Source: Acetobacteraceae bacterium
GTDB lineage: Bacteria > Pseudomonadota > Alphaproteobacteria > Acetobacterales > Acetobacteraceae
DNA length: 64,000 nt
Reading direction: 5' to 3'
Assembly: GCA_965198755.1 (NCBI GenBank)
Contig: OZ240673.1
Coordinates: 3,145,044 to 3,209,043 of the forward strand
Shown here: positions 13,615 to 30,110 of the stretch, in pieces
Numbering within the stretch: the stretch's first letter is position 1
Layout: every line of letters begins with the position of its first letter
Program-made: the position numbers and the translations under genes
Notes under the pieces: model-generated
Seen by the model: the letters and a program-made list of their open reading frames with translations, nothing else
What the model was told of the DNA's origin: nothing
The model's database searches: none

Positions 13615-13689
13615 GGCGACGTAGCTCAGCGGTAGAGCAGGGGAATCATAATCCCTTGGTCGGGTGTTCAAGTCACCCCGTCGCTACCA
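13615..13689 (+). tRNA. tRNA-Met(CAT), elongator type
   Basis: Cloverleaf: acceptor GGCGACG/CGTCGCT, anticodon loop ATCATAA, T-arm GGGTG-TTCAAGT-CACCC, encoded CCA. Confidence 0.93.
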
Positions 13690-13709
13690 TCGGATTTTCG
13701 ACTGTTCTC

Positions 13710-13836
13710 AAGCAAGCAAGCGGTTCTTTTTTGAAAAGAGAACCAAAAACTTTGTTTCCTGGGTAGCCGCTGCCGGGGGTTGCGCGACAGCAGGGAAAGA
13801 GTTTTCGCCGCTATTTTCGGAAACGCATGCCTTGCC
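13710..13836 (-). repeat. Palindromic element E7 (right arm eroded)
   Basis: GAACC arm, CGCGACAG, degenerate right arm. Confidence 0.75.
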
Positions 13837-13947
13837 CTCTTCGCTAGGAACTGAGGAAATCGTATCCAGGTTACCTGGTGTCATCTCGCTCGCCGACCGG
13901 GACTGAACAGGCAACGCACAAGCCCTGCCAAGCCAAGGACGCCCACC

Positions 13948-14945: not shown

Positions 14946-16439
14946 ATGAACGACCTCGCCGGCGTCGCCCAGGCCTTTCAGGACAGCCTGCCCCGCGGTG
15001 CCGAGGTGATCGTCTCGCGCATCGACAGCCTGGACCGCATCGGCGTCCCCGTGGTCCAGGCCGTGCTGCTGGGCCCCGACAGCCCTGCGCTGTCCGGCTA
15101 CGGCTACGGCGTGACCGAGCTGGAGGCACGCGTCGGCGCACTCGGCGAGCTGTGCGAGGAAGCCCATGTCGGCGCCACCATCGCCGCCGCCCCGCAGACC
15201 CTCGCCAGCTATGCAGCCCTGGCCGCGCGCCTGGGCGAACACGCGGTGCTCGACCCGCTGACGCTGTGCCTGCCGGCCGGCTCGGCCTACACGCCCGACA
15301 TGCCGCTCTCCTGGGTCGCCGGCCAGCGCTGGCCGGACGCAGCACCGGTGATGGTGCCGGCCGAGTGGGTGGCGGCGCACCCCTACCAGCTCGCCGCGCC
15401 GGCGCGGCTGATCACGCCCATCACCAACGGCCTGGGCGCCGGCTTCGACCTGCCACACGCTTTGGCGCACGCCTTGATGGAGCTGCTGCAGCGCGACGGC
15501 AACAGCCTCACCTACCGCGCGCTGGACCAGGGCGTGGTGGTCGACCTGCCGCAAGGCGCGCTCGGCGACGTCGACGACCTGCTGGCTCGCCTGCACGCGC
15601 TCGGCATCCGCCCGGTCGTCAAGCTGGCCGACACCAGCTTCGGACTCTCCAACCTCTATGTCATGGGCGATGATGACGGCCCGGCCCACTTCACCCTGCA
15701 GCTCAGCGCCTGCGGCGAGGCGTCCCATCCGGACCGCGCCCGGGCCCTGCGCAAGGCGCTGCTGGAATACATCGGCTCGCGCTCCCGCAAAGCGGCGACG
15801 CACGGTCCGGTGGAGACGGCGCGGCGCGTGCTGCCGCCGGCCTACCTGGCCCGCCTGCTCGCCGTCCCGCCGGCCGCCGAAGAGCCGCGCGCGCTGCAGG
15901 CGATGGCCGAGTGGCTGGGGCTGGACGCGGCAGCCTTGCGCCAGCTGCTGGCCGGCCCGGTGCAGCGCCGCACGCGCGGCATCTCGTTTGCCGACCTGCC
16001 CGACGCACCGGCGGCCGACGTCGCCACCTCCTCCGCCCGGCTCGACTATCTGGCGACCCGGCTGGCGGAAGCCGGGCTCGGCATCGTCTGGGTGGATTGC
16101 TCGCCGGCAGACGGGCCGGTGCGCGTGGTGCGCGCCATCGTGCCGGGACTGGAGAGCGAAACCATGAGCTACCACCGCCTCGGCCGGCGCGGGGTCGCCA
16201 GGCTGCGCGCCCGCCGCGACCCGCTGCTGCTCGACGCACCTCGCGACGGCGCCCTGCGCGTGCGCCTGCGCCCCGAGGACGAGGCAGCCTGCGGCGGGCC
16301 AGCCTGGTTCGACGCGGCACTCGCAGCACGGCTGACCGATCCGCTCTACCCGCTGTATCGTGAATGCGGGCCGTTCGCCGCACAGCGGCTGCTGGCCGGA
16401 AGCCGGCTTCATCGGGCGGATGCTGAAGCTGCGTGCTAG
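14946..16439 (+). CDS. YcaO-like protein (paralogue 1)
   Basis: LDRIGVP, GYG..E..EE, PITNGLGAG, HALMELLQRD, HPDRARALRKALLE, IVPGLE. Confidence 0.85.
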   Translation: MNDLAGVAQAFQDSLPRGAEVIVSRIDSLDRIGVPVVQAVLLGPDSPALSGYGYGVTELEARVGALGELCEEAHVGATIAAAPQTLASYAALAARLGEHAVLDPLTLCLPAGSAYTPDMPLSWVAGQRWPDAAPVMVPAEWVAAHPYQLAAPARLITPITNGLGAGFDLPHALAHALMELLQRDGNSLTYRALDQGVVVDLPQGALGDVDDLLARLHALGIRPVVKLADTSFGLSNLYVMGDDDGPAHFTLQLSACGEASHPDRARALRKALLEYIGSRSRKAATHGPVETARRVLPPAYLARLLAVPPAAEEPRALQAMAEWLGLDAAALRQLLAGPVQRRTRGISFADLPDAPAADVATSSARLDYLATRLAEAGLGIVWVDCSPADGPVRVVRAIVPGLESETMSYHRLGRRGVARLRARRDPLLLDAPRDGALRVRLRPEDEAACGGPAWFDAALAARLTDPLYPLYRECGPFAAQRLLAGSRLHRADAEAAC

Positions 16440-16468
16440 GGGCGTTCGGCTTGCAGTGGCTTCGACCA

Positions 16469-16620
16469 GGCAAGGCAAGCAGTTCTTTTTTGAAAAAAAG
16501 AACCAAAAAACTTTTGTCTCTCTCGGGTGTGCCGTGGTGAGACGCCTTGTTTCAGCCGTCCGCGACAGCGCGCCCAAAAGCTTTTTGCTTCTTTTTCTCG
16601 AAAAAGAAGGCGCTTGCTTT
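16469..16620 (-). repeat. Palindromic element E8
   Basis: Full copy with TGTTTCAGCCGTCCGCGACAG spacer. Confidence 0.95.
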
Positions 16621-16678
16621 CTACTGAGGCGGCGGTCGCAATTGAGAGCGTCTTTCGACTTGCCCGCCCAGTGCACCC

Positions 16679-18445
16679 ATGTCGCGTGACGTTCTGAAGC
16701 GCCCGCCGGCGCACGGCCAGGATGGTGCGGACGGACATCGTCGGCATCGTTCAGCCCATCCGGGTGAGCGCGAACTGGCCGAGCGTGTGGGCTTGCGCCG
16801 GGCCGTGCTGCTTGCGCTGATGCTGGGGGTGGCCGCTTGCCTCGTCTGGCTGGGCGCCGCCGTGCTGGCCCCAGGCGGCTGGACCGCCCTGAAGCTGGCG
16901 CTGCTGCTGTGCCTGGCAGCAAACGCGCCGTGGCTGGGCCTGTCGGCGGCAACTGGGCTGATCGGCTTCTGCGTGCGCATCGGCGCGCGCGACTCCGCCT
17001 GCGCGGTGTTCCCGGCGCTGCGCCTGGTGCGGCCGGACCAGGCGGTCACGTTGCGGACCGCAATCGCCGTCTGCGTGCGCGACGAGGCGGTTGCACCCGT
17101 TTTCGCCAGGCTGGCGCAACTCGGCGCCGATATCGACCATGCCGGGCTGTCCGGCCGCTTCTCGCTGTGCGTGCTGTCCGACACCGCAAGCGACGCGCTG
17201 GCGGAGTCGGAGACCCGCGAAGCCGCTTGCCTGCGCGCTGCGTGCGCCACGCCCGTTCTGTACCGCCGGCGTGCGGCCAACACCGGCTTCAAGGCCGGCA
17301 ACGTGATGTCCTTCCTGGACGAGCACGCGGGCGCCTTCGACCTGCTGGTCTGCCTGGACGCCGACAGCGAGATGACCGCACCCGCCATCCTGCGCCTGGT
17401 GCGGGTGATGCAGGCCGACCCGCGTCTGGCCATCGTGCAGGCCACCTTCCACGGCCAGCCGGCCAGCGCCCTGTTCCCCCGCCTATTCCAGTTCGGCCAG
17501 TTGCAGGGCCTGCGCATCTGGGCGGTGGGGCAGGCCTGGTGGCAGGCCGATAGCGGCCCTTACTGGGGGCACAACGCCGTCGTCCGCGTGGCACCGTTCC
17601 GTGCGCATTGCCGGCTATCCCCGTTGCCGGACGGTGCGGCCATCATGTCGCACGACCACGTGGAGGCCGCGCTGCTGCAGGGTGCCGGCTGGCGCCTGCG
17701 CGTGCTGGCCTGCGACGAGGGCTCGTCCGAAGCCCAGCCGCCGACGCTGCCCGACTACCTCGTCCGCGACCGCCGCTGGGCCGCCGGCAACCTGCAGTAT
17801 CGCTTCCTGCTGCGCCGGCGCGAACTCGGCCGTCTGGGCCGGCTGCAGATGCTTCAGGCAATCCTGCACTATGCGCTGACGCCACTGTGGTTCGCGATGC
17901 TGCCGTTGGCGGCGTTAAACGCCGCCACTGGGGGCGCGGCCCAACTCCGCTGGGGGCGCCTGCTGACCCTGCTGGCGTTCGGCTGGCTGACGCTGCACGC
18001 GCCCAAGCTGCTCGGCATGCTGGAACTGCTGTTGCGCCCCGCGGTCGCCTCGCGTTTTGGCGGCCGGGCTTGCGTGTTGCGCCTGGCCGCGTCCGAGCTG
18101 GTGTTCGCCCAGCTGTTCGATCCCATCATCGCGCTGCACAAGACAGCCGGCGTGCTGCGCCTGGCCGCCGGAGCACCCGGCAGCTGGACCGGGCAGACCC
18201 GCGACGAGCACGCGATCGGCTGGTCGCGCGCTGCAGGGATGTTCTGGCCGCATACGTTGGCGGGCATCGCGCTCGCGGCGGTGTTCGCGGCCGCATCACC
18301 TGCGGCATTGCTGGTTTGTCTGCCGGCGGTGGCGGGATTGATGCTCGCCATACCGTTTGCGGTGTTTTCATCGAAGCAAAGCAAGGCTCTCTTTTTCGAA
18401 AAAAAGAAGCAAAAAACGTTTGGCCGCGCTGTCGCGGACGGCTGA
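16679..18445 (+). CDS. mdoH: Glucan biosynthesis glucosyltransferase MdoH/OpgH-type (GT2); C-terminus derived from element E9
   Basis: GFKAGN, LDADSEM, YWGHNA, SHDHVEA, RDRRWAAGNLQY. Confidence 0.88.
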   Translation: MSRDVLKRPPAHGQDGADGHRRHRSAHPGERELAERVGLRRAVLLALMLGVAACLVWLGAAVLAPGGWTALKLALLLCLAANAPWLGLSAATGLIGFCVRIGARDSACAVFPALRLVRPDQAVTLRTAIAVCVRDEAVAPVFARLAQLGADIDHAGLSGRFSLCVLSDTASDALAESETREAACLRAACATPVLYRRRAANTGFKAGNVMSFLDEHAGAFDLLVCLDADSEMTAPAILRLVRVMQADPRLAIVQATFHGQPASALFPRLFQFGQLQGLRIWAVGQAWWQADSGPYWGHNAVVRVAPFRAHCRLSPLPDGAAIMSHDHVEAALLQGAGWRLRVLACDEGSSEAQPPTLPDYLVRDRRWAAGNLQYRFLLRRRELGRLGRLQMLQAILHYALTPLWFAMLPLAALNAATGGAAQLRWGRLLTLLAFGWLTLHAPKLLGMLELLLRPAVASRFGGRACVLRLAASELVFAQLFDPIIALHKTAGVLRLAAGAPGSWTGQTRDEHAIGWSRAAGMFWPHTLAGIALAAVFAAASPAALLVCLPAVAGLMLAIPFAVFSSKQSKALFFEKKKQKTFGRAVADG

Positions 18446-18512
18446 GACAGCCCGCAACCCAGAGAACAAAAGTCTTTTGCTTCTTTTTTTTCAAAAAAGA
18501 AGGCCTTGCCTT
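18374..18512 (+). repeat. Palindromic element E9, overlapping the mdoH 3' end
   Basis: Two GAAGC-type arms; mdoH stop lies in the spacer. Confidence 0.95.
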
Positions 18513-18625
18513 ACTTTACTAGCGTTTCCGTGAGCGGCAGCCTCCCGGGTTTACACCGCGATGCCGAACCCCATGTGGCCCACACCCGGGCGGTCGGCGT
18601 CCGGGCGGGTTAGGGATGAAAACGC

Positions 18626-19831
18626 ATGCCGGATTTGGGCGTCAGCGAGTCCAACGCAGGACGCCGCCTTGGCGTGCTCGTGGTCGGCGTGGGCGGCGCG
18701 GTCGCCACCACGGCGGTCGCCGGCATCGAGCTACTACGCCGTGGGTCGAACGACTTCGCCGGACTGCCGTTGGCCGACGCCGACGTGCCTGGCCTAGCCG
18801 CCTACCGCAACATGCATTTCGCCGGCTGGGACCTCAACGCCGACGACCTGAGCCACGCAGCCCAGGGCCACCGGGTGCTGGAAGCCGAGCAGGCGAGCCT
18901 GGTGGCCGGCGAGCTCTCGCGCATCCGGCCGTGGCCCGCCGTCGGCAGCACCGATTTTTGCGCCAACGTGGACGGCGCCAACAAGGTGGTCGCCGGCAGC
19001 CACCGCGGCGCCGTCGAGCGCATCCGTCAGGACATCCGCGACTACAAGCAATCCACCGGCATCAGCGACGTGGTGATGATCAACCTCGCCTCCGTGGAAC
19101 GCTGGCCGGCCGACACCGCCGTGCTGGAGGAGGTCGAAGCCTTCGAGCGCGGGCTGGACGACAACAACCCCTCGATCAGCCCGGCGATGCTGTACGCCTA
19201 CGCGTCGATCACCGAGGGCGTGCCCTACGGCAACTTCACCCCGAGCCTGGCCGCCGACATCCCCGCGCTGGTCGCACTCTCCGCCGAGCGCAACGTGCCG
19301 GTAGCCGGCAAGGACGGCAAGACGGGGCAGACGTTCCTCAAGACCGTGCTGGCGCCAGCGCTGCGCGCGCGCTCGCTGTTCGTGGAAGGCTGGTTCAGCA
19401 CCAACATCCTTGGAAACCGCGACGGCCTGGCGCTGGACAACGCCGCCAGCCTGCAGAGCAAGCTCGCCACCAAGGGGTCCGTGCTGGACAACATCCTCGG
19501 CTACAAGGTGGAAAACCACCTGGTGAACATCCAGTACTACAAGCCGCGCGGCGACAACAAGGAAGCCTGGGACAACATCGACATCGTCGGCTTCCTCGGC
19601 CAGAAGATGCAGATCAAGCTGAACTTCCTTTGCCGCGACAGCATCCTGGCCGCCCCGCTGGTGATCGAGATCGCCCGTGTCCTGGACCTCGCACGCCGCC
19701 GCGGCCATGGCGGCATCCAGGAGCAGCTCGGCCTGTTCTTCAAGGCGCCGATGACGCCGGCCGGGTGTCGCGAGGAGCACTCCTTCCCCGTGCAGCAGCA
19801 GGTCCTGCTCGACTGGCTGGTGGCCGCCTAG
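18626..19831 (+). CDS. ino1: Inositol-3-phosphate synthase
   Basis: Rossmann VVGVGGAVA, NFTPS, GKDGKTGQT, NILGNRDG, DNKEAWD, RDSILAAPL. Confidence 0.95.
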   Translation: MPDLGVSESNAGRRLGVLVVGVGGAVATTAVAGIELLRRGSNDFAGLPLADADVPGLAAYRNMHFAGWDLNADDLSHAAQGHRVLEAEQASLVAGELSRIRPWPAVGSTDFCANVDGANKVVAGSHRGAVERIRQDIRDYKQSTGISDVVMINLASVERWPADTAVLEEVEAFERGLDDNNPSISPAMLYAYASITEGVPYGNFTPSLAADIPALVALSAERNVPVAGKDGKTGQTFLKTVLAPALRARSLFVEGWFSTNILGNRDGLALDNAASLQSKLATKGSVLDNILGYKVENHLVNIQYYKPRGDNKEAWDNIDIVGFLGQKMQIKLNFLCRDSILAAPLVIEIARVLDLARRRGHGGIQEQLGLFFKAPMTPAGCREEHSFPVQQQVLLDWLVAA

Positions 19832-19845
19832 GCGCGGTCCGGCCG

Positions 19846-20901
19846 ATGGACAGCCTGCCACCGGTACGGTCAGCGGAGCCCGCCGACCTTGCCGGGATTG
19901 CCTCGCTGGCGGCCGAGCTGGCGACGCTGAAGCGCATCCGCGACGCGCGATCCCCCGAAAGCCTCGCCTCGCTGATGTTTCGGCGCGCCTGGGTAGCGCT
20001 TTGTGCCGGTGTGGCGGTGCGCGACGTGGCGCTGTCCGTCTCCGCCGAGGCGCTGGTCGCGCTTCGCTTGGGCGGCATTGACCGTGCGGTGCTGGTCACG
20101 TCCGGGCTATCGGCCGACGAGGCAGCCGAGGTGCAGACGGCCTCGTTCGACCAGGTGACTGGGAGTATCCTGGCCGGCCAGGATAGGGGTGCGACGGCCG
20201 CCAGCCTGGTCGACGAACTGCGTCGGCGCGTCGGTGGTGAGCAGAGTCGACCCGTCGCTACCGAGCAAGTTCAGCGCGTCCACGCCGAGGACGATCGGCA
20301 TCTCGGCGCCGGGCAAGATCAGCGCGGCGGCGCCGAGCAAGCTGCAGCGGCCCCTGTACCCGCCTTTGTCGAAGCGCTGATCCGCCAGCCGCGCGCCGGC
20401 GCCACCTGCCCCGGCAAGCCGCGCCTGATCCTGGAGCCGCCGGAGGGCCACGGCGACCACTGCCTCGCCGTCGCCGTGCTGGGCGTCGTGCTGTGCGCCG
20501 AGTACGGCGCCGACCCCGCGCCCGTATTCCTCGCCGGCCTCGCTCACCACCTGCACAACGCCACCCTGCCCGACGCCGGGTTCGCCGGCGAGGTGCTGCT
20601 CGGCACCCACCTGATCCCGGTCCTGCGCCGCCTGACCGACCAGGCCCTGGCCACCCTGCCGGCCGGGCTTGCCGCCCACACGCGCGACGCGCTCGCCCTG
20701 GCGGCCGATGCCGGGACGCCGGAGGGGCGCGCCTTCAACGCCGCCGACGTGATCGACCGCATCATGGAGGTGCGCCACTTCGCCGCCGTCGCCGGCTTCA
20801 CCGAGGCGCAGGCGACTGACGACATGGAGCTGGTCCACGCCGGCCCGCTGCAGGATTTCCACTACCAGGTGATGCGCCGCGCAGGGCTGCTACCGGCGTG
20901 A
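19846..20901 (+). CDS. HD-fold (YfbR-like) phosphohydrolase-type protein, apparently duplicated domain
   Basis: QPRAG...EGHGDHCLAVAV...AGLAHHLHNA...FNAADVIDR resembles HD-domain His/Asp spacing; N-half ELATLKRIRDA looks like a degenerate copy. Confidence 0.55.
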   Translation: MDSLPPVRSAEPADLAGIASLAAELATLKRIRDARSPESLASLMFRRAWVALCAGVAVRDVALSVSAEALVALRLGGIDRAVLVTSGLSADEAAEVQTASFDQVTGSILAGQDRGATAASLVDELRRRVGGEQSRPVATEQVQRVHAEDDRHLGAGQDQRGGAEQAAAAPVPAFVEALIRQPRAGATCPGKPRLILEPPEGHGDHCLAVAVLGVVLCAEYGADPAPVFLAGLAHHLHNATLPDAGFAGEVLLGTHLIPVLRRLTDQALATLPAGLAAHTRDALALAADAGTPEGRAFNAADVIDRIMEVRHFAAVAGFTEAQATDDMELVHAGPLQDFHYQVMRRAGLLPA

Positions 20902-22214
20902 CCAGCCCGCCCCCAAACCTGCGCAGCCCGGCAACCGGCGCCGTGCTCACCGCCGGACCGCACGACCTGCACGCCGCCGGCGAGCGCTGGCCGGTGGTGG
21001 ACGGCATCGCCTTCCTGCGCGCCGACCGCCGCGCGCTGGCCGACGCGGCACTGGCCGCGCTGGATGCCGGCGACGCCGAGACCGCCTGTGTCATCCTGCT
21101 GGCGGACCAGGACGGCTGGGCCAGCACGCCACCGCCGGACGAAGCCGCCCGCCGCTTCGCGGTGCGCGAGCGCGCCGCGCTCAGCTTCCGCGCCGCCATG
21201 GATGTGCTGGCGTTCGGGCCGGTGGCCACCTACTTCGCGCACCGCTGGTCCGACCCCACCTTCCTCTCCGGCCTGGCTTTGGCCGAGGCGCACTGGCACG
21301 CGCCGGACCGCATCGTCGAGCTGGCCTGCGGTGCCGGCCACTACCTGCGCGAGTTCGCCCGCGTGCGGCCGCAGGCCGAGATCACCGGCGGCGACCTGGT
21401 GTTCGCCAAGCTGTGGCTGGCGCGGCACTTCGTGGCACCGCAGGCAAAGCTGCTGTGCTTCGACGCGGCGCAGCCCTGGCCGTTACCGGACGCGTCGGCT
21501 GACCTCGTGTTCTGCCACGATGCTTTCTATTTTCTGCCGGATAAGCAGCGTGTGGCGGGGGAGATGCTGCGGGTGGCCGGCGGGCAGGAAGCAAGCGCTT
21601 CTTTTTCGAGAAAAAGAAGCAAAAAGCTTTTGTCTCGGCTATCGCGGACGGCTGAAACGACACGCCTTCCCAACGCGCACCCCCAGGAGCAAAAGTTTTT
21701 TGGTTCTTTTTTTCAAAAAAGAACTGCTTGCCTTGCTTCCGGCCGCATCCTCGTCGGACACGCCCACAACGCCGCCGTGGAAAACCTTTCCCACGGCGCG
21801 CCCCTGCTCCCCGAAGACTACGCAGCGCTATTTGGGCAGGCATTGCTGTACGACGACCGCGAACTGACCACCGCGCTCGCCGAAGCACGCGCCCCGCACC
21901 CGGCAGACGCCGCCAACCTGCAACAGGCGCCAGCCGTGGCGCTGGCGGCCGGTGCGGCTGCAGCCGACGTGCCACGCATGCTGACCGGCGGGCTGGCGAT
22001 GCCGCAGCCGGGGCGGCAGCTGATGCGCAACCCGCTCTATGCCGAAGGCGCGGGCACGTTGCGCTTCCCCTCGCCGCGCTACGAGGCGGAATATGCGTCC
22101 CTGGCCACCTATCGCCCAACCACCGACGCGCCCGCCCGCGCAGTGGCCGGCGACCCGGCGCTGGAGGGCGCCATCCGCCGGCGCGAGCTTCTCGACCTGC
22201 CGGCCGAATGGTGA
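20898..22214 (+). CDS. Class I SAM-dependent methyltransferase with Trm112-like N-terminus and a 52-aa in-frame element insertion
   Basis: LRSPATG...WPVVDGIAFL N-terminus; VELACGAGH motif I; GDL; FCHDAFYF; GTGA overlap with the upstream gene. Confidence 0.85.
   Translation: MTSPPPNLRSPATGAVLTAGPHDLHAAGERWPVVDGIAFLRADRRALADAALAALDAGDAETACVILLADQDGWASTPPPDEAARRFAVRERAALSFRAAMDVLAFGPVATYFAHRWSDPTFLSGLALAEAHWHAPDRIVELACGAGHYLREFARVRPQAEITGGDLVFAKLWLARHFVAPQAKLLCFDAAQPWPLPDASADLVFCHDAFYFLPDKQRVAGEMLRVAGGQEASASFSRKRSKKLLSRLSRTAETTRLPNAHPQEQKFFGSFFQKRTACLASGRILVGHAHNAAVENLSHGAPLLPEDYAALFGQALLYDDRELTTALAEARAPHPADAANLQQAPAVALAAGAAAADVPRMLTGGLAMPQPGRQLMRNPLYAEGAGTLRFPSPRYEAEYASLATYRPTTDAPARAVAGDPALEGAIRRRELLDLPAEW
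21587..21740 (+). repeat. Palindromic element E10, inserted in frame within the methyltransferase
   Basis: Terminal GGAAGCAAG...CTTGCTTCC; reading frame stays open across it. Confidence 0.95.
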
Positions 22215-23281
22215 GCACCGGCGCGCGCCTGGGCTGGGGCATTGCCGGGTGCGGCTGGGTGGCGCGCGACTACGCGGTGCCGGCCATCCGCAAGTCCTCC
22301 AACGGCACCCTGCTGGCGGTGCACGACCAATCCGACGCGGCGCTGGACCGGGCACGGCGGGAATTGGTCGGTGTCGCCTGCCACGCCAGCCTGGACGACT
22401 TTCTGGCTACGCCCGGCCTGCAGGCGGTCTACGTCGCCACGCCCAACCACGCCCACCGCGCGCTGGCCGAACGCGTCGCCGCCGCCGGCCTCGCCGTGCT
22501 GTGCGAGAAGCCGATGGCCACCACGCTGGCGGAGGCTACCCGCATGGTGCGTGCCTGCACCGATGCCGGGGTGCGCTACGCCACCGCCTTCGACCAGCGC
22601 TTCCACCCGGCGCATCGCCACCTGGCGCGCCTGGTGGCGGACGGCGCCATCGGGCGGCCGACCGCCATCCGCATCGTCTACGCCTGCTGGGTGGACGATT
22701 GTTGGGCGCCCGACGCGGTGAGCACCGACAACTGGCGCACCGACCCGGAGCGTGCCGGCGGCGGCGCGCTGTTCGACCTGGCGCCGCACGGGCTGGACCT
22801 CGCCGCGATGATCCTGGGCGAGCGCATCGAGGCCGTCGCCGCCATGGGCCAGTCGCGCGTGCACGGCTACGCCTCGCGCGGGGTGGAGGGGCGCGGCGTG
22901 GAAGATGGGGCGCTGCTGATGGCGCGCTCGGCCTCCGGCGTGCTGCTGCAGATGCACGTGGCCTACAACTGCCCGGAGACGCTGCCGCGCCGCCGGCTGG
23001 AAGTGCTGGGAACGGCGGGGCAGATCGTCGCTACGGACACGATGGGGCAGACGCCGGGCGGCACTTTGGTTTTAACGGATGCGGCGGACGGCGTGGCCCG
23101 TCAGGTGGACGTGCCGGACGCGGAGCGGGCGCCGTTTCTCGGCCAGATGGAGGCGTTTGCCGCCTGCGTGCTGGAGGGTGCGGCGTTTGCGTTCACACCG
23201 GAGCATGATTTGCACACGATGGCGCTTCTGGAGCGTGCGCAGGCAATGGTGGTGGCGACGTTAAAGCGACTGTTTGTCTGA
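22208..23281 (+). CDS. Gfo/Idh/MocA family NAD(P)-dependent oxidoreductase
   Basis: GIAGCGWVA, VATPNHAH, CEKPMA, GGGALFDLAPHGLD. Confidence 0.93.
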   Translation: MVSTGARLGWGIAGCGWVARDYAVPAIRKSSNGTLLAVHDQSDAALDRARRELVGVACHASLDDFLATPGLQAVYVATPNHAHRALAERVAAAGLAVLCEKPMATTLAEATRMVRACTDAGVRYATAFDQRFHPAHRHLARLVADGAIGRPTAIRIVYACWVDDCWAPDAVSTDNWRTDPERAGGGALFDLAPHGLDLAAMILGERIEAVAAMGQSRVHGYASRGVEGRGVEDGALLMARSASGVLLQMHVAYNCPETLPRRRLEVLGTAGQIVATDTMGQTPGGTLVLTDAADGVARQVDVPDAERAPFLGQMEAFAACVLEGAAFAFTPEHDLHTMALLERAQAMVVATLKRLFV

Positions 23282-23393
23282 AACAAAAGAAACAATGCCA
23301 CGTTCACTCCAAAATCCGGCAATCCAGTCCGTCGACTTGCGAGTCATGCTGATGACCTCCGGGCCATCCGCCGGCTTCTCAAGTGACGCCCGT

Positions 23394-23498
23394 AAAGAAA
23401 GCTATTGGTGGCGCTATCGCGGAGTTTCCGGCAGCGCGCGCCCAAGAGAACAAAAGTTTTTTGGTTCTTTTTTTCAAAAAAGAACCGCTTGCTTCCTT
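23394..23498 (+). repeat. Palindromic element E11 (left arm eroded)
   Basis: CTATCGCGGAGTTTCC spacer + intact GAACC arm. Confidence 0.85.
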
Positions 23499-23509
23499 CG
23501 GGTCAGTTC

Positions 23510-24334
23510 ATGCCCCTAACCCCCTTTGCCTGCAGCAACTGCGGCCACTGGCAGCGCTACTTCGCCACCCCGCCGCTCTGCCCTATCTGTTCCGACGTGC
23601 GCAACGATTTGCCGGAGGACGGCTGGGACTTTCGCACGCCGGAGCAGCTGATCCCCACGTTGCAGTTCCACTGGCGCGAGGCGATCCCCGGCGTGTGGGA
23701 GTTCTGGTCCACGCCGCGGTTCGGCCTGGACAGCCACGGCTGGCTGCTGTTGCACGAGTTGGGCAACGTCGCGTTCGAGGCAGCGCCGATCTACAACGAT
23801 GCCCAACTGGCGCAGATACGCGCGCTCGGCGGCATACGGTTTCTGGCGGCGTCGCATCCGCACGGTTACGGCGCGCTGTTCCAGTTGCAGGAGGTGTTCC
23901 AGCCGGAAGCGTTGCTGATCCAGAAGGACGACCTGGACTGGACCAAGGCGTTCCGGGTGACGCTGCCTTACGACGAGACGTTCGAGATCTATACAGGCCT
24001 GACCTTGCACCACGTTGGCGGCCACTATGCCGGGCAGGCGGTGTTGCACGACGCGGAGCGGCGCGCGGTGTTCGCCGGCGACAGCCTGAAGATCGATTTC
24101 GATGCGGCGGGCGAGGCGCAAGGCATTTCCTGCCACAAGGCTTACCACAAGCAGATCCCGCTCTCGCGCGACGAGGCGCGCCGTTACCGCAGCGTCTACG
24201 AGCGGCTGGACTTCACGTCGGTGTTCACCCCGTTCGAGATGGCGACCGACACCGGCACGGCGGCCGCAGTAGCGCTGCTCGACCAGGTGATCGAAGGCCC
24301 GCCGTCCACCAAGCCGATCCCGATCCGCCGATGA
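23510..24334 (+). CDS. MBL-fold metallo-hydrolase-like protein with N-terminal CxxC...CxxC Zn-ribbon
   Basis: CSNCG...CPICSD; ASHPHGYG; GGHYAG; FAGDS. Confidence 0.75.
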   Translation: MPLTPFACSNCGHWQRYFATPPLCPICSDVRNDLPEDGWDFRTPEQLIPTLQFHWREAIPGVWEFWSTPRFGLDSHGWLLLHELGNVAFEAAPIYNDAQLAQIRALGGIRFLAASHPHGYGALFQLQEVFQPEALLIQKDDLDWTKAFRVTLPYDETFEIYTGLTLHHVGGHYAGQAVLHDAERRAVFAGDSLKIDFDAAGEAQGISCHKAYHKQIPLSRDEARRYRSVYERLDFTSVFTPFEMATDTGTAAAVALLDQVIEGPPSTKPIPIRR

Positions 24335-25824
24335 CCCGCGCGATGCCCGAGGCCGCCCGCGCCTACCTCGATTCCATGCCGGCGGGGAGCGTGGACCTGT
24401 TCCCGCTGACCCCGCTGGACCGCACCGGCGTGCCCTGCTGGAACGCGGTGTTCCACGACGCGGCCGCGCAGGCCTGGGTGGGCGTCGCACCGCATGGCGT
24501 CGGCTACGGCAGCACCGACGATGAGGCGATCGTGGGGACCACCGGCGAGCTGGCCGAGGCCATCCACTCGGCGGCGGGCATCTGGCGGCTGGAGCGGCGG
24601 CGGGGCAGCACCACGGACCTGGTGCGCAGCCTGGGTGCCGACGCGGTGGCCGACCCGCTGACCCTGTGCCTGCCGGCCGGGTGCGCGGTGGATGCGGACA
24701 CCGCGCTGGAGTGGGTGCCGACGCGCCGCTACCGCGATGGCGCGACGGTCTGGCTGCCGATCGACATCGCGGCGTGTTCCTACGGCGACCTCTCGCCCGG
24801 CTACACGGCGTTCACCAGCCCGATCACCAACGGGCTGGGTGCAGGGCCGAGCCTGGACTTCGCCATCGGCCACGGGTTGTGCGAGCTGTTCCAGCGCGAC
24901 GGCAACGGGCTGGGCTTCCGCGCCATGGACCGCGGCATCCTGCTGGAGTTCGGCCCCGATTTTCCGCGCGACCCGCGCACCCGCGCGCTGCTGGCGCATC
25001 TGCGCAGTCTGGGCATCGAGGTGCTGGCCAAGTTCGCCGACGACGCGTTCGGCATCGCCAACGTCTACTGCGTCGGCGGCGAGACGGACCGGTCTGCCGC
25101 AGCACCCATCATGGTCACCGCCGCCGGCGAGGCCGCCTCGCCCGACCGCGAGCACGCGCTGCGCAAGGCGGTGCTGGAGTTCGCCGCCGCGCGCGCCCGC
25201 AAGGCGTTCAGCCACGGCGCGCTGGCCGAAGCCGCCCGCGTGGCGCCGGCGCGCTACCTCGAAAGTTTCCGCGCCCGCCAGACGCTGGACGGCGAGGAGG
25301 ACCGCACGATGGCGGCGATGCGCGACTGGCTCGGCCGCGACCAGGCCAGCCTGCGCGCCCTGCTGGCAGACAGCGCGCTGTCCCGCCGCGAGACCAAGCG
25401 CTTCGACGAGCTGCCGCAATGGGACGGCGCACTGTCCGGCACAGCGCTGGTAGCCGAACTGCACCGCCGCCTGGCCGCGCACGGGATGGACGTGCTGGTG
25501 CTGGACTACTCCCCGCCGGACCACCCGGACGTGCACGTGGTGAAAGTGGTGGTGCCAGGGCTGGAGGTAGAGACGATGAGCTATCACCGCATCGGCGAGC
25601 GTGGCGTGCGCAAGCTGCTGGACCGCGGATCGGACCTGGTGGGTTTCGGCCCGCCGCCGCCGGGCGCGCTGCCGGTGCGCCTGCCCGCCGGTGCGGCCGA
25701 GCGGCTGGGCGGCGTGCCGTGGCTCGACGTGGCCGGGGTGGACCGCATCGTGGGCCCGCTCTACCCGCTCTACCGCGAGCCCGAGGTGCACGCGGCGCAG
25801 ATTGCCCTGGAGGCGGTAGCGTGA
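24331..25824 (+). CDS. YcaO-like protein (paralogue 2)
   Basis: LDRTGVP, GVGYG, PITNGLGAG, HGLCELFQRD, RKAVLE, VVPGLE; ATGA overlap with the MBL gene. Confidence 0.85.
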   Translation: MTRAMPEAARAYLDSMPAGSVDLFPLTPLDRTGVPCWNAVFHDAAAQAWVGVAPHGVGYGSTDDEAIVGTTGELAEAIHSAAGIWRLERRRGSTTDLVRSLGADAVADPLTLCLPAGCAVDADTALEWVPTRRYRDGATVWLPIDIAACSYGDLSPGYTAFTSPITNGLGAGPSLDFAIGHGLCELFQRDGNGLGFRAMDRGILLEFGPDFPRDPRTRALLAHLRSLGIEVLAKFADDAFGIANVYCVGGETDRSAAAPIMVTAAGEAASPDREHALRKAVLEFAAARARKAFSHGALAEAARVAPARYLESFRARQTLDGEEDRTMAAMRDWLGRDQASLRALLADSALSRRETKRFDELPQWDGALSGTALVAELHRRLAAHGMDVLVLDYSPPDHPDVHVVKVVVPGLEVETMSYHRIGERGVRKLLDRGSDLVGFGPPPPGALPVRLPAGAAERLGGVPWLDVAGVDRIVGPLYPLYREPEVHAAQIALEAVA

Positions 25825-25854
25825 GGTTCGCCCGGCGGCCCGTGTTGACGAGTA

Positions 25855-25992
25855 GCAAGCAAGGCAAGCAGTTCTTTTTTGAAAAAAAGAACCAAAAAAC
25901 TTTTGTTCCCTTGGGTGCGCGTTGCAGGAAACTCCGCGACAGCAGGGATAAAAGTTTTTTGCTGCTTTTTTTCAAAAAAGCAGGCCTTCCCT
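25855..25992 (-). repeat. Palindromic element E12
   Basis: Full copy; right arm has compensatory GCTGC/GCAG variant. Confidence 0.95.
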
Positions 25993-26137
25993 TTCTTCTA
26001 GAGCATCAACCAACCTTACGGGGCTGCCCGTCGGATGCAGATGCTCGTCAACGGAGGGCGCTGCCGCGTTTTCCGGTCTGCTTGTCCAATTCAACGAGGT
26101 CAGAAAACACTCTAGCGTGTCGGCTTGCCGCGGAGGC

Positions 26138-26962
26138 ATGGGCTTGAGGTTCGCCTACAACACCAACGGCACCGCCAACCACCGGCTGGACGAGGCGATC
26201 GCGCTGATCGCCGACGCCGGCTACGACGGCGTGGCGCTGACTCTCGACATCCACCACCTCGACCCGTTCGCGGGCTTTCGCGCCGAGCTGCGCCGCGTCG
26301 CCGCTCTTCTGCGCGCCCATAGCCTAGGCTGCGTCATCGAGACCGGCGCGCGCTTCCTGCTCGACCCGCGGCAAAAGCACGAGCCTACCCTGGTGACCGC
26401 GGACAGTGAGGGCCGCGCGCGCCGCGTGGCTTTCCTGACCCGCGCGCTGGAAGCGGCCGCTGAGACCGGCGCCGAGGCGATGTCTTTCTGGGCCGGCGTG
26501 CCGAAACCGGGCGTGACCGCGGCGCAGGCGCGCGATTGGGTGGCCGAGGGCGCGGCCGAAATTGCCCGGCGTGCCGAACAGCTCGGGACTGTCGCCGCGC
26601 TTGAGCCGGAACCGGGCATGGCGATCGAGACCGCGGCAGACTGGCAGGCGCTGGCGATCCCCGGCCTGCGCCTGGCGCTGGACACCGGGCACTGCCTGGT
26701 CACCGGCGAGATGGACCCCGCGGACGCGGTGCGCCAGTACGCAAGCGACCTCGGCACCGTGTCGATCGAGGACATGGCGCGCGGCGTGCACGTGCATTTG
26801 CCGTTCGGCGAGGGGGACATGGACCTGCCTGGCGTGCTCGCGGCGTTGCATGAGGTGCGCTTCACCGGCCTGGTCTGCGTGGAGCTGTCGCGGGAGAGCC
26901 ACCGGGCGGACACGATGGTGCCGGGTGCGTTGGCGTGGCTGCGGGATCGGGTGGCGTCCTGA
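26138..26962 (+). CDS. Sugar phosphate isomerase/epimerase (AP endonuclease 2 TIM barrel)
   Basis: GGAGG RBS; AYNTNG, LEPEPGM, LDTGH, IEDM, HLPFGEGD, VELSR. Confidence 0.9.
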   Translation: MGLRFAYNTNGTANHRLDEAIALIADAGYDGVALTLDIHHLDPFAGFRAELRRVAALLRAHSLGCVIETGARFLLDPRQKHEPTLVTADSEGRARRVAFLTRALEAAAETGAEAMSFWAGVPKPGVTAAQARDWVAEGAAEIARRAEQLGTVAALEPEPGMAIETAADWQALAIPGLRLALDTGHCLVTGEMDPADAVRQYASDLGTVSIEDMARGVHVHLPFGEGDMDLPGVLAALHEVRFTGLVCVELSRESHRADTMVPGALAWLRDRVAS

Positions 26963-26966
26963 TGCG

Positions 26967-27100
26967 AAGCAAGACCTTCTTTTCTGAAGAAAAGAAGCAA
27001 AAGACTTTTGCTTCCGCTGTCGCGGACTCTCCCACGAGCGCGCGGCAGCGGAAACAAAAGTTTTTTGGTTCTTTTTTTCAAAAAAGAACTGCTTGCCTGC
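26967..27100 (+). repeat. Palindromic element E13
   Basis: Full copy between the TIM-barrel and GT4 genes. Confidence 0.95.
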
Positions 27101-27104
27101 CTTC

Positions 27105-28322
27105 ATGAGGATCTGTTTCGTCAGCCGCCGCTACTTCCCGGCGATCTCCGGCATGAGCGTCTACGCGCAGAACCTGCTCCGCGAACTCGCCAGCGCCGGC
27201 CACGACGTAACGATGATCAGCCAATACCGCGGCGACGATTACGGCCGCGCCGTCTACGGCGGCGGCCCGCCCCCCGCGGTGCCCGGCGTGCGCGTCTTCG
27301 GCCTGGAGCAGCTCGGCGAGCAGTCGACCGGCGACTTCGAGCGTGACGTCGCCGTGATGGTGGAGGCGATCTGCGCCGAACACACGCGCGCGCCGTTCGA
27401 CGTGCTGCACGCGCAATACGGCTACCCGACCGGCTGGGCGGTCATGCTGGCGGCCCGGCGGCTGGGGCTGCCGAGCGTGGTCTCCATCCAGGGCGGCGAC
27501 GGGCACTGGGTGGGCTCGTGTTGCGAGACGCACCGCCTGGCGATGATACGCGTGCTGGACCACGCGGGCGCGGTGCTGATCGGCTGCCGCTCGTTTGCAG
27601 AGGAGGTGTGCGGGCGGCTGGGCACCGATCCTGGACGCTTCACCATCGTGCCGGGCGCGGTGGAGACCGACCGATTCACCCCGGCCGCCCGGCCGGTGGG
27701 CGCCGCGCCGGTGCTGCTGTATCACGGCCGGATCGACGCGCGGAAAGGTGCGCTGGACCTGCTGGACGCGGCCAGGCTGCTCGCCGACGAGGGCGCGGCC
27801 TTTTCACTGGTGTATTCGGGCATCGGCCCGGATCACGGGCGCGTCGCGGCGCGCATCACCGAACTGGGCCTGGGCGGGCGCGTGCGGATGACCGGCTACG
27901 TCAACTACGCGGACGTGCCGGCGGTGTATCACCAGGCGGACGTGTTCGTTTCGCCCACCTATGCCGAGGGGTTCTCCAACACCATCCTCGAAGCGATGGC
28001 ATCCGGCCTGGCCTGCGTCTCCTGCCGCGTCGTGGGCGTCATGGACTGCCTGCGGGACGGCGAGAACGGGCTGCTGAACGAGCCGGGCGACATACCCGCC
28101 TTGGCCGCCTCGCTGCGCCGGCTGCTGGCTGAGCCGGACCTGCGGCGCCGGCTGGCGCAGGCGGGGCTGGAGGAGTGCCGGCGCCTCTACTCGTGGCCGG
28201 CGGTCGGGCGGCAGATCATGCAGGTCTACGCCGACACGGTGCGGCGAGCGCCGGACCTGGGCTTCTCCACCGAGCTGCCGATGACGCCGTGCCGTTTCCG
28301 GGCGGACCCGCACCTCCTGTGA
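27105..28322 (+). CDS. GT4 family glycosyltransferase
   Basis: HAQYG, GRIDARKG, EGFSNTILEAMASG. Confidence 0.93.
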   Translation: MRICFVSRRYFPAISGMSVYAQNLLRELASAGHDVTMISQYRGDDYGRAVYGGGPPPAVPGVRVFGLEQLGEQSTGDFERDVAVMVEAICAEHTRAPFDVLHAQYGYPTGWAVMLAARRLGLPSVVSIQGGDGHWVGSCCETHRLAMIRVLDHAGAVLIGCRSFAEEVCGRLGTDPGRFTIVPGAVETDRFTPAARPVGAAPVLLYHGRIDARKGALDLLDAARLLADEGAAFSLVYSGIGPDHGRVAARITELGLGGRVRMTGYVNYADVPAVYHQADVFVSPTYAEGFSNTILEAMASGLACVSCRVVGVMDCLRDGENGLLNEPGDIPALAASLRRLLAEPDLRRRLAQAGLEECRRLYSWPAVGRQIMQVYADTVRRAPDLGFSTELPMTPCRFRADPHLL

Positions 28323-29071
28323 CGCGCACGGCGCTGTTCCTCTCGCCGCACCTGGACGACGTAGTGTTTTCCTGCGGCGGCCTGGCCGCGGTGCTGCACG
28401 ACCGCGGCTGGCGCACGGTGCTGGCGACCGCGTTCACCGCGACCGTGACGCCCGTCACCGGCTTCGCGCTCGCCTGCCAGCTCGACAAGGGGTTGCCCGC
28501 GGAGACCGATTACATGGCCCTGCGCCGCGCCGAAGACCACGCGGCCGCGGCCATCCTTGGGTTCACCGACGTGCGCCACCTCGGCCTGCCCGAAGCACCG
28601 CATCGTGGTTACGACAGCGCGCGCGCCCTGTTCGGCGGCGTCCGCGACGACGACATCATCGTGCAGGCGCTCGCGGCACACCTGACGGCGCTGCAAAGCG
28701 AATTCGCGCCGAACCTTGTGCTGGCTCCACAGGGTTTGGGCAGCCACGTCGACCACCGGCAGGTGGTGCGCGCAATCACCGAAACGGTGGACGCGCCGCT
28801 CGCCTGGTACCGCGACACGCCTTACGCGATGCGCCACCAGGACGCGCCGCCGCCGCACGTGGCTCGGCTTGCGGAGATGCGGTTTCCGGTCGGCAGCGCG
28901 TTGGACCGCAAGCTGCGTGCCGCCTGCGCCTACGTCAGCCAAGTCGGTTTCCAGTTCGGCGGGCCCGAACAGACACAAACCGCATTGCGCGCGTTCGCTG
29001 CCGCTGAAGCCGGAGGTGGCGGGTTTGCAGAACGACTGGCCGTGTCGGTCGGGGCGGACGGTTCACTTTGA
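28319..29071 (+). CDS. PIG-L family deacetylase
   Basis: SPHLDDVVFSCGG, RRAED, SHVDH; GTGA overlap with GT4. Confidence 0.92.
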   Translation: MTRTALFLSPHLDDVVFSCGGLAAVLHDRGWRTVLATAFTATVTPVTGFALACQLDKGLPAETDYMALRRAEDHAAAAILGFTDVRHLGLPEAPHRGYDSARALFGGVRDDDIIVQALAAHLTALQSEFAPNLVLAPQGLGSHVDHRQVVRAITETVDAPLAWYRDTPYAMRHQDAPPPHVARLAEMRFPVGSALDRKLRAACAYVSQVGFQFGGPEQTQTALRAFAAAEAGGGGFAERLAVSVGADGSL

Positions 29072-29108
29072 GCCGGTTGGTTGGTTTGACTGTTTGTGTT
29101 GATCGGGG

Positions 29109-29156
29109 AGCAAGGTAAGCAGTTCTTTTTTGAAAAAAAGAACCAAAAAACTTTTG
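29109..29156 (-). repeat. Palindromic element half copy E14a (GAACC arm)
   Basis: gcaaggtaagcagttcttttttgaaaaaaagaaccaaaaaacttttg. Confidence 0.85.
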
Positions 29157-29308
29157 CTCCCGTACAGTGCGTGCTGATGGAAAGGTGTCGTTTAATCAGT
29201 GGCGGCGCGCACGTGCGCATTTGGCGCGCACGCAGATCTCTAATGCTTTGCAGCATGGTGTAGCAGCGGCGCAGGTCTGACCTTGCAAGTGCAGCAAACG
29301 CAATGCCT

Positions 29309-29415
29309 GCATAAAAACGTCTGTCCCTGCTGTCGCGCTAGCTCCAACAACGCGCACCTGAGGGAACAAAAGTTTTTTGGTTCTTTTTCTCAAAAAAGAA
29401 CCGCTTGCCTTGCTT
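29309..29415 (+). repeat. Palindromic element E14b (left arm eroded)
   Basis: CTGTCGCG + intact GAACC arm. Confidence 0.85.
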
Positions 29416-29832: not shown

Positions 29833-29923
29833 TGCTCAGCTCCTACAGGGACCATTACAAATCTTCTTTTGCACGCTTGGGCCTTAGAGTGCGGGCCGGC
29901 TTTGACTCGCTTTCGGACAAGAG

Positions 29924-30075
29924 AAAGCAAGGCAAGCAGTTCTTTTTGAAAAAAAGAACCAAAAAACTTTTGTTCCCTTGGGGCGCGCGTTGGTGAGACG
30001 TGTCGTTTCAGCCGCCCGCGACAACCGGGACAAAAGCTTTTTGCTTCTTTTTCTCGAAAAAGAAGGCCTTGCTTC
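29924..30075 (-). repeat. Palindromic element E15
   Basis: Full copy, CGTGTCGTTTCAGCC spacer. Confidence 0.95.
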
Positions 30076-30110
30076 TACTCGCTAAAAAACAACCAAGCAT
30101 GCCCAGGCTC

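Follow-up and report, generated by a model that had tools for sequence, protein, structure and literature searches.

Several YcaO proteins are known to work as stand-alone enzymes. The archaeal proteins of M. jannaschii (MJ1094) and M. kandleri, which lack an E1-like domain, form a thioamide (thioglycine) in McrA, and E. coli YcaO carries out the thioamidation of Met82 in uL16 (PMC13063428). In the amidine-forming stand-alone YcaOs (bottromycin, klebsazolicin, streptamidine and ItfB), ATP activates an amide, which an amine or ammonia then attacks (PMC8442711, PMC11002830). Roles outside ribosomally made, post-translationally modified peptides (RiPPs) find mention in the streptamidine paper only for archaea and Proteobacteria, with citation of earlier work, and a survey of Acetobacteraceae biosynthetic clusters names YcaO once, for a Roseomonas mucosa cluster in which it is read as an azol(in)e-peptide enzyme, and inositol never. 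Here we examined a stretch of 64,000 nucleotides from an Acetobacteraceae bacterium (contig OZ240673.1, positions 3,145,044 to 3,209,043; hereafter the window), in which an operon at 14946-29071 encodes two YcaO proteins among enzymes of cyclitol and aminosugar metabolism. An earlier note, made from the sequence alone, had taken these genes for a cluster producing a cyclitol-aminosugar small molecule, with twin YcaO enzymes acting on a non-ribosomal amide or sugar. The co-conservation of the cluster, the absence of partners for its YcaO and the cyclitol-aminosugar reading were upheld, while the twin YcaOs proved not to be a feature of the pathway. On balance, we lean towards an operon that makes a cyclitol-aminosugar glycoside with a dedicated YcaO acting at the N-acyl/amine position on hexosamine C2.

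The G+C content of the window is ~68%, and raw lists of open reading frames (ORFs) are therefore noisy; genes were called from third-position GC (GC3 frame plot), and their identities were taken from Pfam and NCBIfam scans. The region 14946-29071 consists of exactly eleven genes on the + strand, with the orientation and identities that had been proposed. YcaO-1 (14946-16439, 497 residues; PF02624, 4e-49, 168.1 bits against a cut-off of 25.7) is followed by a membrane glycosyltransferase of family GT2 belonging to the OpgH/MdoH family, of the glucans biosynthesis glucosyltransferase type (16679-18445; NF003962, 405.8 bits against 328; PF13632). Downstream lie Ino1, the myo-inositol-1-phosphate synthase (18626-19831; PF07994, 8e-61; PF01658, 1e-31), an HD-like phosphohydrolase (19846-20901), a class I S-adenosylmethionine-dependent methyltransferase (20898-22214; PF08241/PF13649), a Gfo/Idh/MocA NAD(P) oxidoreductase (22208-23281; PF01408/PF22725), referred to below as Gfo, and a metallo-β-lactamase (MBL)-like protein (23510-24334; weak PF00753 match). 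The remaining genes encode YcaO-2 (24331-25824, 497 residues; PF02624, 5e-52, 177.6 bits), a xylose-isomerase-like TIM barrel (26117-26962; PF01261, 3e-35), a retaining glycosyltransferase of family GT4 (27093-28322; PF00534, PF13579 and others) and a PIG-L/LmbE-family de-N-acetylase (28319-29071; PF02585, 2e-16). Overlaps of the ATGA/GTGA kind, also claimed earlier, could be read directly at four junctions (GTGA at 20898-20901, ATGGTGA at 22208-22214, ATGA at 24331-24334 and GTGA at 28319-28322). Purifying selection acts on each of the eleven genes, with ratios of nonsynonymous to synonymous substitution rates (dN/dS) of 0.05-0.23 against the two closest relatives, the loci L005 and L087 (76-98% amino-acid identity). 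Domain scans of the ~50 window genes found no TfuA, ThiF/E1-like, nitroreductase or RiPP recognition element (RRE) domain, in agreement with the statement that no classical YcaO partner is present.

The operon was then compared among relatives, of which one genome per species was scanned (349 relatives) and the best 80 of the 349 loci were analysed. The order Ino1, HD-like protein, methyltransferase, Gfo, (MBL-like protein), YcaO, TIM barrel, GT4, PIG-L is kept in 80 of 80 loci, with YcaO, Ino1, GT4 and PIG-L retained as a unit; the complete eight-gene core is found in 60 loci, the others being cut by contig ends. Because the order is identical in all 80, the arrangement is conserved far beyond chance. 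Ino1 is 72-98% identical across the loci, the MBL gene is present in 42 of 77, and an MdoH-type GT2 gene follows PIG-L in 50 of the 61 loci with enough downstream sequence. Outside the core, no family of flanking genes occurs in more than 22 loci. Since only the core is conserved, the unit is self-contained and moves between genomic contexts. Small ORFs resembling precursor genes were searched for in ~3 kb around each cluster: no family was found in more than 27 of ~82 loci, none includes the window, and the commonest families resemble frame shadows of subclade-specific flanking genes. No conserved small ORF emerged from the 80 or more loci, and most loci have tight, overlapping genes without room for a precursor gene. 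An azoline-type E1-like/Ocin-ThiF partner or flavin mononucleotide (FMN) dehydrogenase was absent from the ~50 window genes and from the called genes of the loci, and a TfuA neighbour was found neither in the window nor in the related loci.

A search of 1.84 billion cluster representatives gave a compact clade of 185 representatives at E ≤ 1e-30. Homologs of both YcaOs are numerous, and nearly all belong to Acetobacteraceae (Belnapia, Roseomonas, Roseicella, Craurococcus, Rhodopila, Acidisphaera and many metagenome-assembled genomes, a good share of which are from lichen metagenomes). The core was found in Belnapia, Acidisphaera, Roseicella and Acuticoccus and on a metagenome contig with 76% GC, where a remote YcaO (225 bits) follows Ino1, the HD-like protein, methyltransferase, Gfo and MBL-like protein in an hrcA-dnaJ context. 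Clusters of the Belnapia/Roseicella type (L001:14299-18241 and L089:14466-19076) carry an added GalE-type UDP-hexose 4-epimerase gene before the OpgH gene and, depending on the genome, also genes for a PurD-like ATP-grasp ligase, a UDG-like protein and a major facilitator superfamily (MFS) transporter.

Gene fusions and variant clusters bear on the relation between YcaO and the sugar enzymes. In Acuticoccus sp., PIG-L and YcaO are fused in a single protein (RefSeq WP_420391781.1), encoded at the end of a locus with the order Ino1, HD-like protein, methyltransferase, Gfo, MBL-like protein, TIM barrel, GT4, PIG-L-YcaO. Fusions of the MBL-like protein and YcaO occur in at least six 50%-identity clusters (P0379, P0380, P0406, P0410, P0450 and P0453) and are 37-48% identical to the window proteins; one of these clusters contains eight full-length copies (829-830 residues) among nine members, from separate contigs. 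In a variant cluster (L091:6556-14609), a 3-dehydroquinate synthase (DHQS)-like cyclase (PRK06203 type by NCBIfam, 463 bits) is found at the place of Ino1, followed by a short HD-like protein, Gfo, an MBL-YcaO fusion, GT4 and PIG-L, with insertion sequence (IS) elements upstream and without the TIM barrel and methyltransferase. Its cyclase is predicted to be a sugar-phosphate cyclase standing in for Ino1. The minimal conserved set consists of a cyclitol synthase, the HD-like protein, Gfo, YcaO (with or without the MBL-like protein), GT4 and PIG-L. The two kinds of fusion and the cyclase-swapped variant tie YcaO to the sugar pathway.

A further YcaO lies on another metagenome contig (L092:1-4149; GC 74.5%). 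This remote YcaO has the Gln signature EVLQRH and the C-terminal sequence YPMYREPPPH, and its gene overlaps that of a NodU/TobZ-type carbamoyltransferase, after a pyridoxal phosphate (PLP)-dependent enzyme gene; genes for a ROK regulator and a sugar ABC transporter lie opposite. Judged by its genes, this neighbourhood appears to be a sugar context and not a peptide one, and we counted it for the sugar reading; it may represent a second sugar-linked YcaO context, with a carbamate as amide-like substrate.

The primary structures of the two YcaOs were examined together with those of the clade. Both exceed the gathering threshold for PF02624 (IPR003776), and both are intact and constrained, with a dN/dS of 0.16 for YcaO-1. 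AlphaFold (AF2) models were compared by Foldseek, with TM-scores normalized to the target (TMt). The YcaO-2 model (pLDDT 93) has the YcaO fold, with M. jannaschii YcaO (6PEU) as best match (E 2e-19, TMt 0.79), followed by LynD, M. kandleri YcaO and E. coli YcaO (TM 0.40-0.47), and a profile search likewise identified the M. jannaschii thioamidation YcaO as the closest solved relative (7e-20). In an alignment with the MG1655 protein, E. coli E75, E78 and E199 are conserved (E73, E76 and E185 here), and the GExxE, TNGLGAG and R/K cluster motifs are invariant. On the other hand, the clade reads ExxQRD where others read ExxERD, and a C-terminal (L)YPLYREP..H motif replaces the PxPxP of azoline-forming enzymes. 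Every curated YcaO subfamily model scores far below its cut-off, including the SagD-type model TIGR03604 (89.7 and 92.1 against 219) and TIGR03266 (methan_mark_1), the best NCBIfam match (98 and 61.9 against 365). These features indicate that the cluster YcaOs constitute a distinct subfamily. A YcaO of the uL16-modifying type was considered and rejected: the cluster proteins have 497 residues, no C-terminal helical domain in the alignment and pI values of 5.71 and 5.37 (family medians 5.6), whereas E. coli YcaO has 586 residues, that domain and a pI of 4.38.

The earlier note had listed the MBL-like protein without recognising it as a likely YcaO partner. Alignment revealed an invariant N-terminal zinc ribbon (CxxC...CPxC) and a degenerate metal motif (SHxHG...GGH...GD). 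No match was obtained in a single-sequence search of the PDB, and its profile gave only weak matches there, to the PqsE/glyoxalase II thioesterases at 1e-4. The protein is likely a partner of YcaO.

The two YcaOs are 43% identical to each other. YcaO-2 stands where every related cluster has its YcaO, and its ortholog in Acidisphaera-type clusters is their single operon YcaO (60-95% identity); YcaO-1 is the ortholog of the single cluster YcaO in Belnapia and Roseicella (61-63%). The nearest homologs of YcaO-1 (67-69%), however, are found in lichen-associated relatives outside the operon, where each is paired with an MdoH-type GT2 (61-68% identity to the window GT2). This two-gene module adjoins a divergent GT25-like gene among polysaccharide genes. 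Two YcaOs occur only in L005 among the 80 genome loci, in L087 and in the window, and all other loci have one. In these same three, and nowhere else, the module lies directly upstream of Ino1, and the operon has no 3' GT2 gene. The window holds one MdoH-type gene only. In one genome, the module (L085) lies ~390 kb from an operon without its own 3' GT2 (L080) on the same 2.15-Mb contig, and it is in this one genome that the pairing of 3'-OpgH loss with a YcaO-OpgH module elsewhere was confirmed. Since nearly all clusters have a single YcaO and YcaO-1 travels with OpgH as a separate module, the pathway would need only one YcaO, and the second appears to be a paralog that came with the OpgH gene. 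YcaO-1 and YcaO-2 would then be paralogs catalysing the same kind of reaction, with YcaO-2 as the operon's own copy, and the YcaO-1/OpgH module would replace the OpgH gene that most relatives have at the 3' end of the operon. As YcaO-1 is kept beside OpgH in several contexts, the two proteins may cooperate.

All cluster GT2s are of the MdoH type, with 608.8 bits against 419 (NF003958) for Acidisphaera-type clusters and 329 (Belnapia) and 405 (L085) against 328. The window GT2 is 51% identical to that of the Belnapia cluster and 33% identical to the 3'-terminal GT2 of Acidisphaera-type clusters. No MdoG domain that would indicate an OpgG/MdoG partner was found in the scanned window genes or the called genes of the loci. 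A tRNA-Met(CAT) gene (13615-13689, + strand; Rfam, ARAGORN) lies just upstream of a cupin gene and the YcaO-1/OpgH pair, and is a possible integration landmark for the arrival of the module beside the operon.

The sugar enzymes resemble known families to differing degrees. GT4 matches sucrose-phosphate synthase (6kih, 4e-25), MshA (7qsg, 9e-21) and BshA (5d00) in the PDB, and the nearest solved relatives of PIG-L are Dbv21/Orf2*, the N-acetylglucosamine (GlcNAc) deacetylases of glycopeptide (teicoplanin) biosynthesis (1e-11). A cyclitol-aminosugar product is the natural reading of Ino1 together with such a GT4 and PIG-L, and the assignment made from the sequence in the first place still seems the best one. 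The HD-like protein matches no family at a curated cut-off (PF01966 stays sub-threshold, 17.1 bits against 22, and there is no NCBIfam match), and its profile search against the PDB was marginal; its identity came from structure prediction (pLDDT 83) and Foldseek. The C-terminal half is YfbR/HDDC2-like (4dmb, 3kh1 and 1ynb, TMt 0.53-0.63), the N-terminal helical domain has no Foldseek match, and the 'HD' dyad reads 'HH'. Going by the model, it is probably an inositol-phosphate or GlcNAc-inositol-phosphate phosphatase. The window protein has 351 residues against ~300-310 in homologs; residues ~113-172 contain a GC-rich insertion of ~45 residues that is absent from most homologs and is modelled with a pLDDT of 48-60. 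The NCBIfam matches of Gfo all fall below cut-off (xylose dehydrogenase (Gfo6), IolG, levoglucosan dehydrogenase and UDP-GlcNAc 3-dehydrogenase), and it resembles the inositol 2-dehydrogenase or sugar 3-dehydrogenase type. The TIM barrel, with weak PDB matches to sugar isomerases and UlaE and no equivalog above cut-off, resembles a sugar/inosose isomerase, epimerase or dehydratase.

Taking these identities together, we propose a pathway whose step order, product and YcaO reaction are inferred from gene content. Ino1 would supply an inositol phosphate, to which the MshA-like GT4 would add GlcNAc. The HD-like hydrolase would take off the phosphate and PIG-L would remove the acetyl group, giving a pseudodisaccharide of the glucosamine (GlcN)-inositol type, and Gfo, the TIM barrel and the methyltransferase would tailor the cyclitol or the sugar. 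In Acetobacteraceae, the OpgH-type membrane glucosyltransferase probably elongates the product or exports it to the envelope. The stand-alone YcaO would be a core enzyme, often working with or fused to the zinc-ribbon MBL-fold protein, and most likely activates, at the expense of ATP, a carbonyl at the C2 N-acyl/amine of the hexosamine in a non-ribosomal intermediate. We favour the C2 N-substituent because the GlcNAc acetamide is the only amide predicted and PIG-L, whose site of action this is, is fused to YcaO in one lineage. Three outcomes can be imagined and are left unranked. The reaction could yield an acetamidine, from ammonia or the freed amine; it could yield an oxazoline via the neighbouring hydroxyl, the β-hydroxy-acetamide of the sugar being the same functional array as acyl-Ser/Thr; or it could yield a thioamide, for which the thioesterase-like MBL protein would supply the sulfide in the manner of TfuA. 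That the subfamily marked by ExxQRD, YPLYREP and the MBL-like partner works on a carbohydrate in one of these three ways at hexosamine C2, and so defines a previously undescribed class of cyclitol glycosides, is a tentative proposal to which we give rather less than an even chance.

Other pathways were considered for the genes and set aside. An inositol catabolic (iol-like) cluster does not agree with the anabolic Ino1, GT4 and PIG-L, and no transporter or regulator is conserved. The hopanoid cyclitol-ether (HpnI/HpnK) pathway was rejected as the GT2 is of the MdoH type and HpnJ is absent, and a glycosylphosphatidylinositol (GPI)-like lipid pathway as there is no phosphatidylinositol synthase; the PAP2 gene nearby is shared with the closest relative alone.

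Several observations weigh against the proposed sugar-directed reaction. To our knowledge, every characterised YcaO acts on a peptide or protein, whose backbone amide it activates, and the nearest solved relative modifies the protein McrA. The acetamide of GlcNAc is the sole obvious amide of the predicted route and would be taken away by PIG-L, so that what YcaO acts on is not self-evident. Of 77 clusters, 35 lack the MBL-like partner, and OpgH is absent beside the Acuticoccus and L091 clusters. Public sequencing runs that hold the window sequence show even depth over the genes and DNA-like behaviour. A further point concerns the active site. The E. coli residues E75, E78, E199 and E202 are, we assume, ligands of ATP/Mg2+, with E202 binding Mg2+, and we take the E202A variant to be a catalytically dead control in the assay of uL16 thioamidation. 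It was paired there with wild-type E. coli YcaO in a co-expression format (PMC13063428). The equivalent of E202 is Gln188 in the window, and Gln is found in 331 of 332 clade sequences; because of this substitution, nucleotide and metal handling, and the chemistry, may differ from canonical amide O-phosphorylation.

The alternative that survives best, although we regard it as unlikely, is that the YcaOs modify a protein, for instance by backbone thioamidation as in McrA or uL16. The target could be an enzyme of the operon, OpgH or some unlinked protein, with the sugar genes simply co-regulated or constituting the pathway of the target. The closest solved structures are indeed the thioamidation YcaOs of M. 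jannaschii and M. kandleri, and methan_mark_1 is the best NCBIfam model; its scores of 98 and 62 are, however, far below the cut-off of 365. E. coli YcaO, which lacks a TfuA neighbour, recognises a folded protein (PMC13063428), yet it differs from the cluster proteins in length and pI as given above (586 against 497 residues; 4.38 against 5.4-5.7). The MBL-like protein, whose best PDB matches are thioesterases, might deliver sulfide to a protein in the manner of TfuA. YcaO-1 is also kept beside OpgH in several unrelated contexts, but OpgH itself is lacking next to two of the clusters, and the PIG-L and MBL fusions and the strict operon membership across phyla, with variable flanks, better fit a pathway enzyme.

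Slightly less probable still is a subfamily that has left amide activation and become an ATP-dependent kinase, ligase or adenylating enzyme whose target would be a hydroxyl, carboxylate or ketone on the cyclitol or sugar. It could, for example, couple a group to the GlcN amine once this is free, in the manner of MshC in the mycothiol pathway. The Gln at the position of E202 and the YPLYREP motif in place of PxPxP are consistent with such a change, the PIG-L-YcaO fusion suggests a step right after deacetylation, when no amide is left, and the Belnapia cluster adds the PurD-like ATP-grasp ligase. Nucleotide use also varies in the superfamily: Dunbar et al. (2014) reportedly found that E. coli YcaO hydrolyses ATP to AMP and PPi. 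Against this, the GExxE, TNGLGAG and R/K cluster motifs are invariant, the fold superposes on ATP-bound YcaOs, and a non-amide reaction is without precedent in the superfamily. A RiPP system whose precursor is encoded elsewhere in the genome, with the sugar genes glycosylating or decorating the peptide, is very improbable: YcaOs are overwhelmingly RiPP enzymes, glycosylated RiPPs are generally known to exist and the small-ORF search spanned ~3 kb around each cluster, but the 80 or more loci yielded no conserved small ORF, RRE, E1-like, TfuA, dehydrogenase, protease and ABC exporter genes are absent from the window with none conserved in the loci, the genes are tightly packed with overlaps in most loci, and Ino1, the phosphatase and PIG-L are not RiPP tailoring enzymes.

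The remaining window genes are ordinary chromosomal ones, mnmE, leuS, kup, a two-component system, MazEF and a HIT protein among them. A MazE/MazF toxin-antitoxin pair is found beside an ScfR-type (HTH-M78-ScfRs) regulator and an isocitrate-lyase-family gene (10390-10933 (- strand), 8835-10232 (+) and 6683-8344 (-)); in L087, the called genes of this stretch are short fragments only. A transposase-like helix-turn-helix fragment (IS630/IS481-type domains; 53791-54300) and an N6/N4 DNA methylase (55085-55924) lie in a stretch of lower GC. A sigma-70 promoter scan gave no match, terminator-like sites occur at chance level, and the tRNA was the sole match of an Rfam scan.

A dispersed AT-rich palindromic repeat, resembling miniature inverted-repeat transposable (MITE) or repetitive extragenic palindromic (REP) elements, is present in nearly every intergenic gap within the cluster and near it. 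The full element is ~150 bp, with arms that read like GCAAGCAGTTCTTTTTTGAAAAAAAGAACCAAAAAACTTTTGT and its inverse. It fills the gaps 13690-13947, 16440-16678, 18446-18625, 23282-23509, 25825-26116, 26963-27092, 29072-29400 and 29880-30110, and further hairpin cores lie at 4043, 6652, 8768, 10331, 11041, 33859, 52780, 57526, 58399 and 60434; the window holds 18 hairpin cores against 0 expected. In the source runs, the k-mer depth of bins containing the repeat is ~10^4 against ~60 for unique sequence, two to three orders of magnitude higher, pointing to hundreds of copies. At the junctions that bear the repeat here, the genes of relatives overlap tightly. One full copy lies in frame within the methyltransferase gene (~21590-21740), adding ~50 residues between conserved segments, and is also present in L005; the ORF is intact (dN/dS 0.14-0.17), and the insertion recalls the in-frame Rickettsia palindromic elements.

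If the proposed sugar-directed role of YcaO holds, hundreds of Acetobacteraceae, the dominant lichen-associated lineages among them, would make such compounds, as would other bacteria here and there. In Acetobacteraceae, an OpgH-type envelope glucan synthase would be linked to the product, ATP-dependent amide activation would extend to small-molecule glycosides, and the MBL-fold zinc-ribbon protein would be a new YcaO partner alongside the E1-like proteins and TfuA. Because the cluster is abundant in lichen-dominating Acetobacteraceae and coupled to an OpgH-type glucan synthase, the product may matter for envelope or osmotic/desiccation biology in the lichen symbiosis. Among cultured bacteria, the cluster is carried by Belnapia, Roseicella aquatilis, Acidisphaera sp. 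L21 and Acuticoccus, and the operon is compact, with 9-10 genes.

Each of the families is known; the combination, the YcaO subfamily and the MBL partner are undescribed in the literature that we searched. No publication found there links YcaO to inositol, Ino1, cyclitols, LmbE/PIG-L or GlcNAc deacetylases, describes OpgH paired with YcaO and a cyclitol-aminosugar operon, or assigns the cluster to a known product. The archaeal thioamide YcaOs are, like the cluster YcaO, stand-alone proteins, but identity is 17-20%, and the cluster protein differs by ~100 extra C-terminal residues, a sugar operon and the absence of McrA. E. coli YcaO is likewise a stand-alone proteobacterial protein without a TfuA neighbour or precursor peptide and, unlike the cluster YcaOs, does not belong to a sugar operon. 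Amidine formation would be the most plausible chemistry if ammonia or the freed amine of GlcN acts as nucleophile, although the known amidine-forming YcaOs have ribosomal peptide substrates and an adjacent precursor gene, and none was found in these loci. The cluster GT2s pass or approach the MdoH equivalogs, yet are shorter (550-615 residues) and have no adjacent OpgG.

The early steps of mycothiol and bacillithiol biosynthesis are similar to those proposed here, with Ino1, a GT4 (MshA/BshA) that places GlcNAc on a small acceptor and a PIG-L protein (MshB/BshB) that frees the amine. We know of no gene assigned to the phosphatase step of mycothiol biosynthesis, a step that an HD-type phosphatase like that of the cluster could fill. 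In contrast to those pathways, the equivalogs score far below cut-off (MshA 79.7 against 462.5, Ino1 26.6 against 638, BshB1 28.9 against 182.5), and Gfo, TIM barrel, methyltransferase, YcaO, MBL-like protein and OpgH are added. No MshC, MshD or BshC is present in the window, and MshC- or MshD-like genes are not conserved in the loci. Alphaproteobacteria, to which the hosts belong, are generally glutathione users. The paromamine module of 2-deoxystreptamine biosynthesis comprises a sugar-phosphate cyclase, the GT4 BtrM/NeoD and the PIG-L-type deacetylase BtrD/NeoL. In 2-deoxystreptamine clusters, a 2-deoxy-scyllo-inosose synthase and two transaminations precede the GT4 and deacetylase steps. 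Unlike these clusters, neither the window cluster nor L090 or L091 has an aminotransferase, and a radical SAM enzyme and a resistance gene are lacking; the YcaO/MBL pair and the Gram-negative hosts are further differences. In common with the paromamine module, the cluster combines a cyclitol synthase, for which L091 likewise uses a DHQS-like cyclase in place of Ino1, with a dehydrogenase, a GT4 GlcNAc transferase and an LmbE-type deacetylase, a set of enzymes that leads to a cyclitol-glucosamine pseudodisaccharide.

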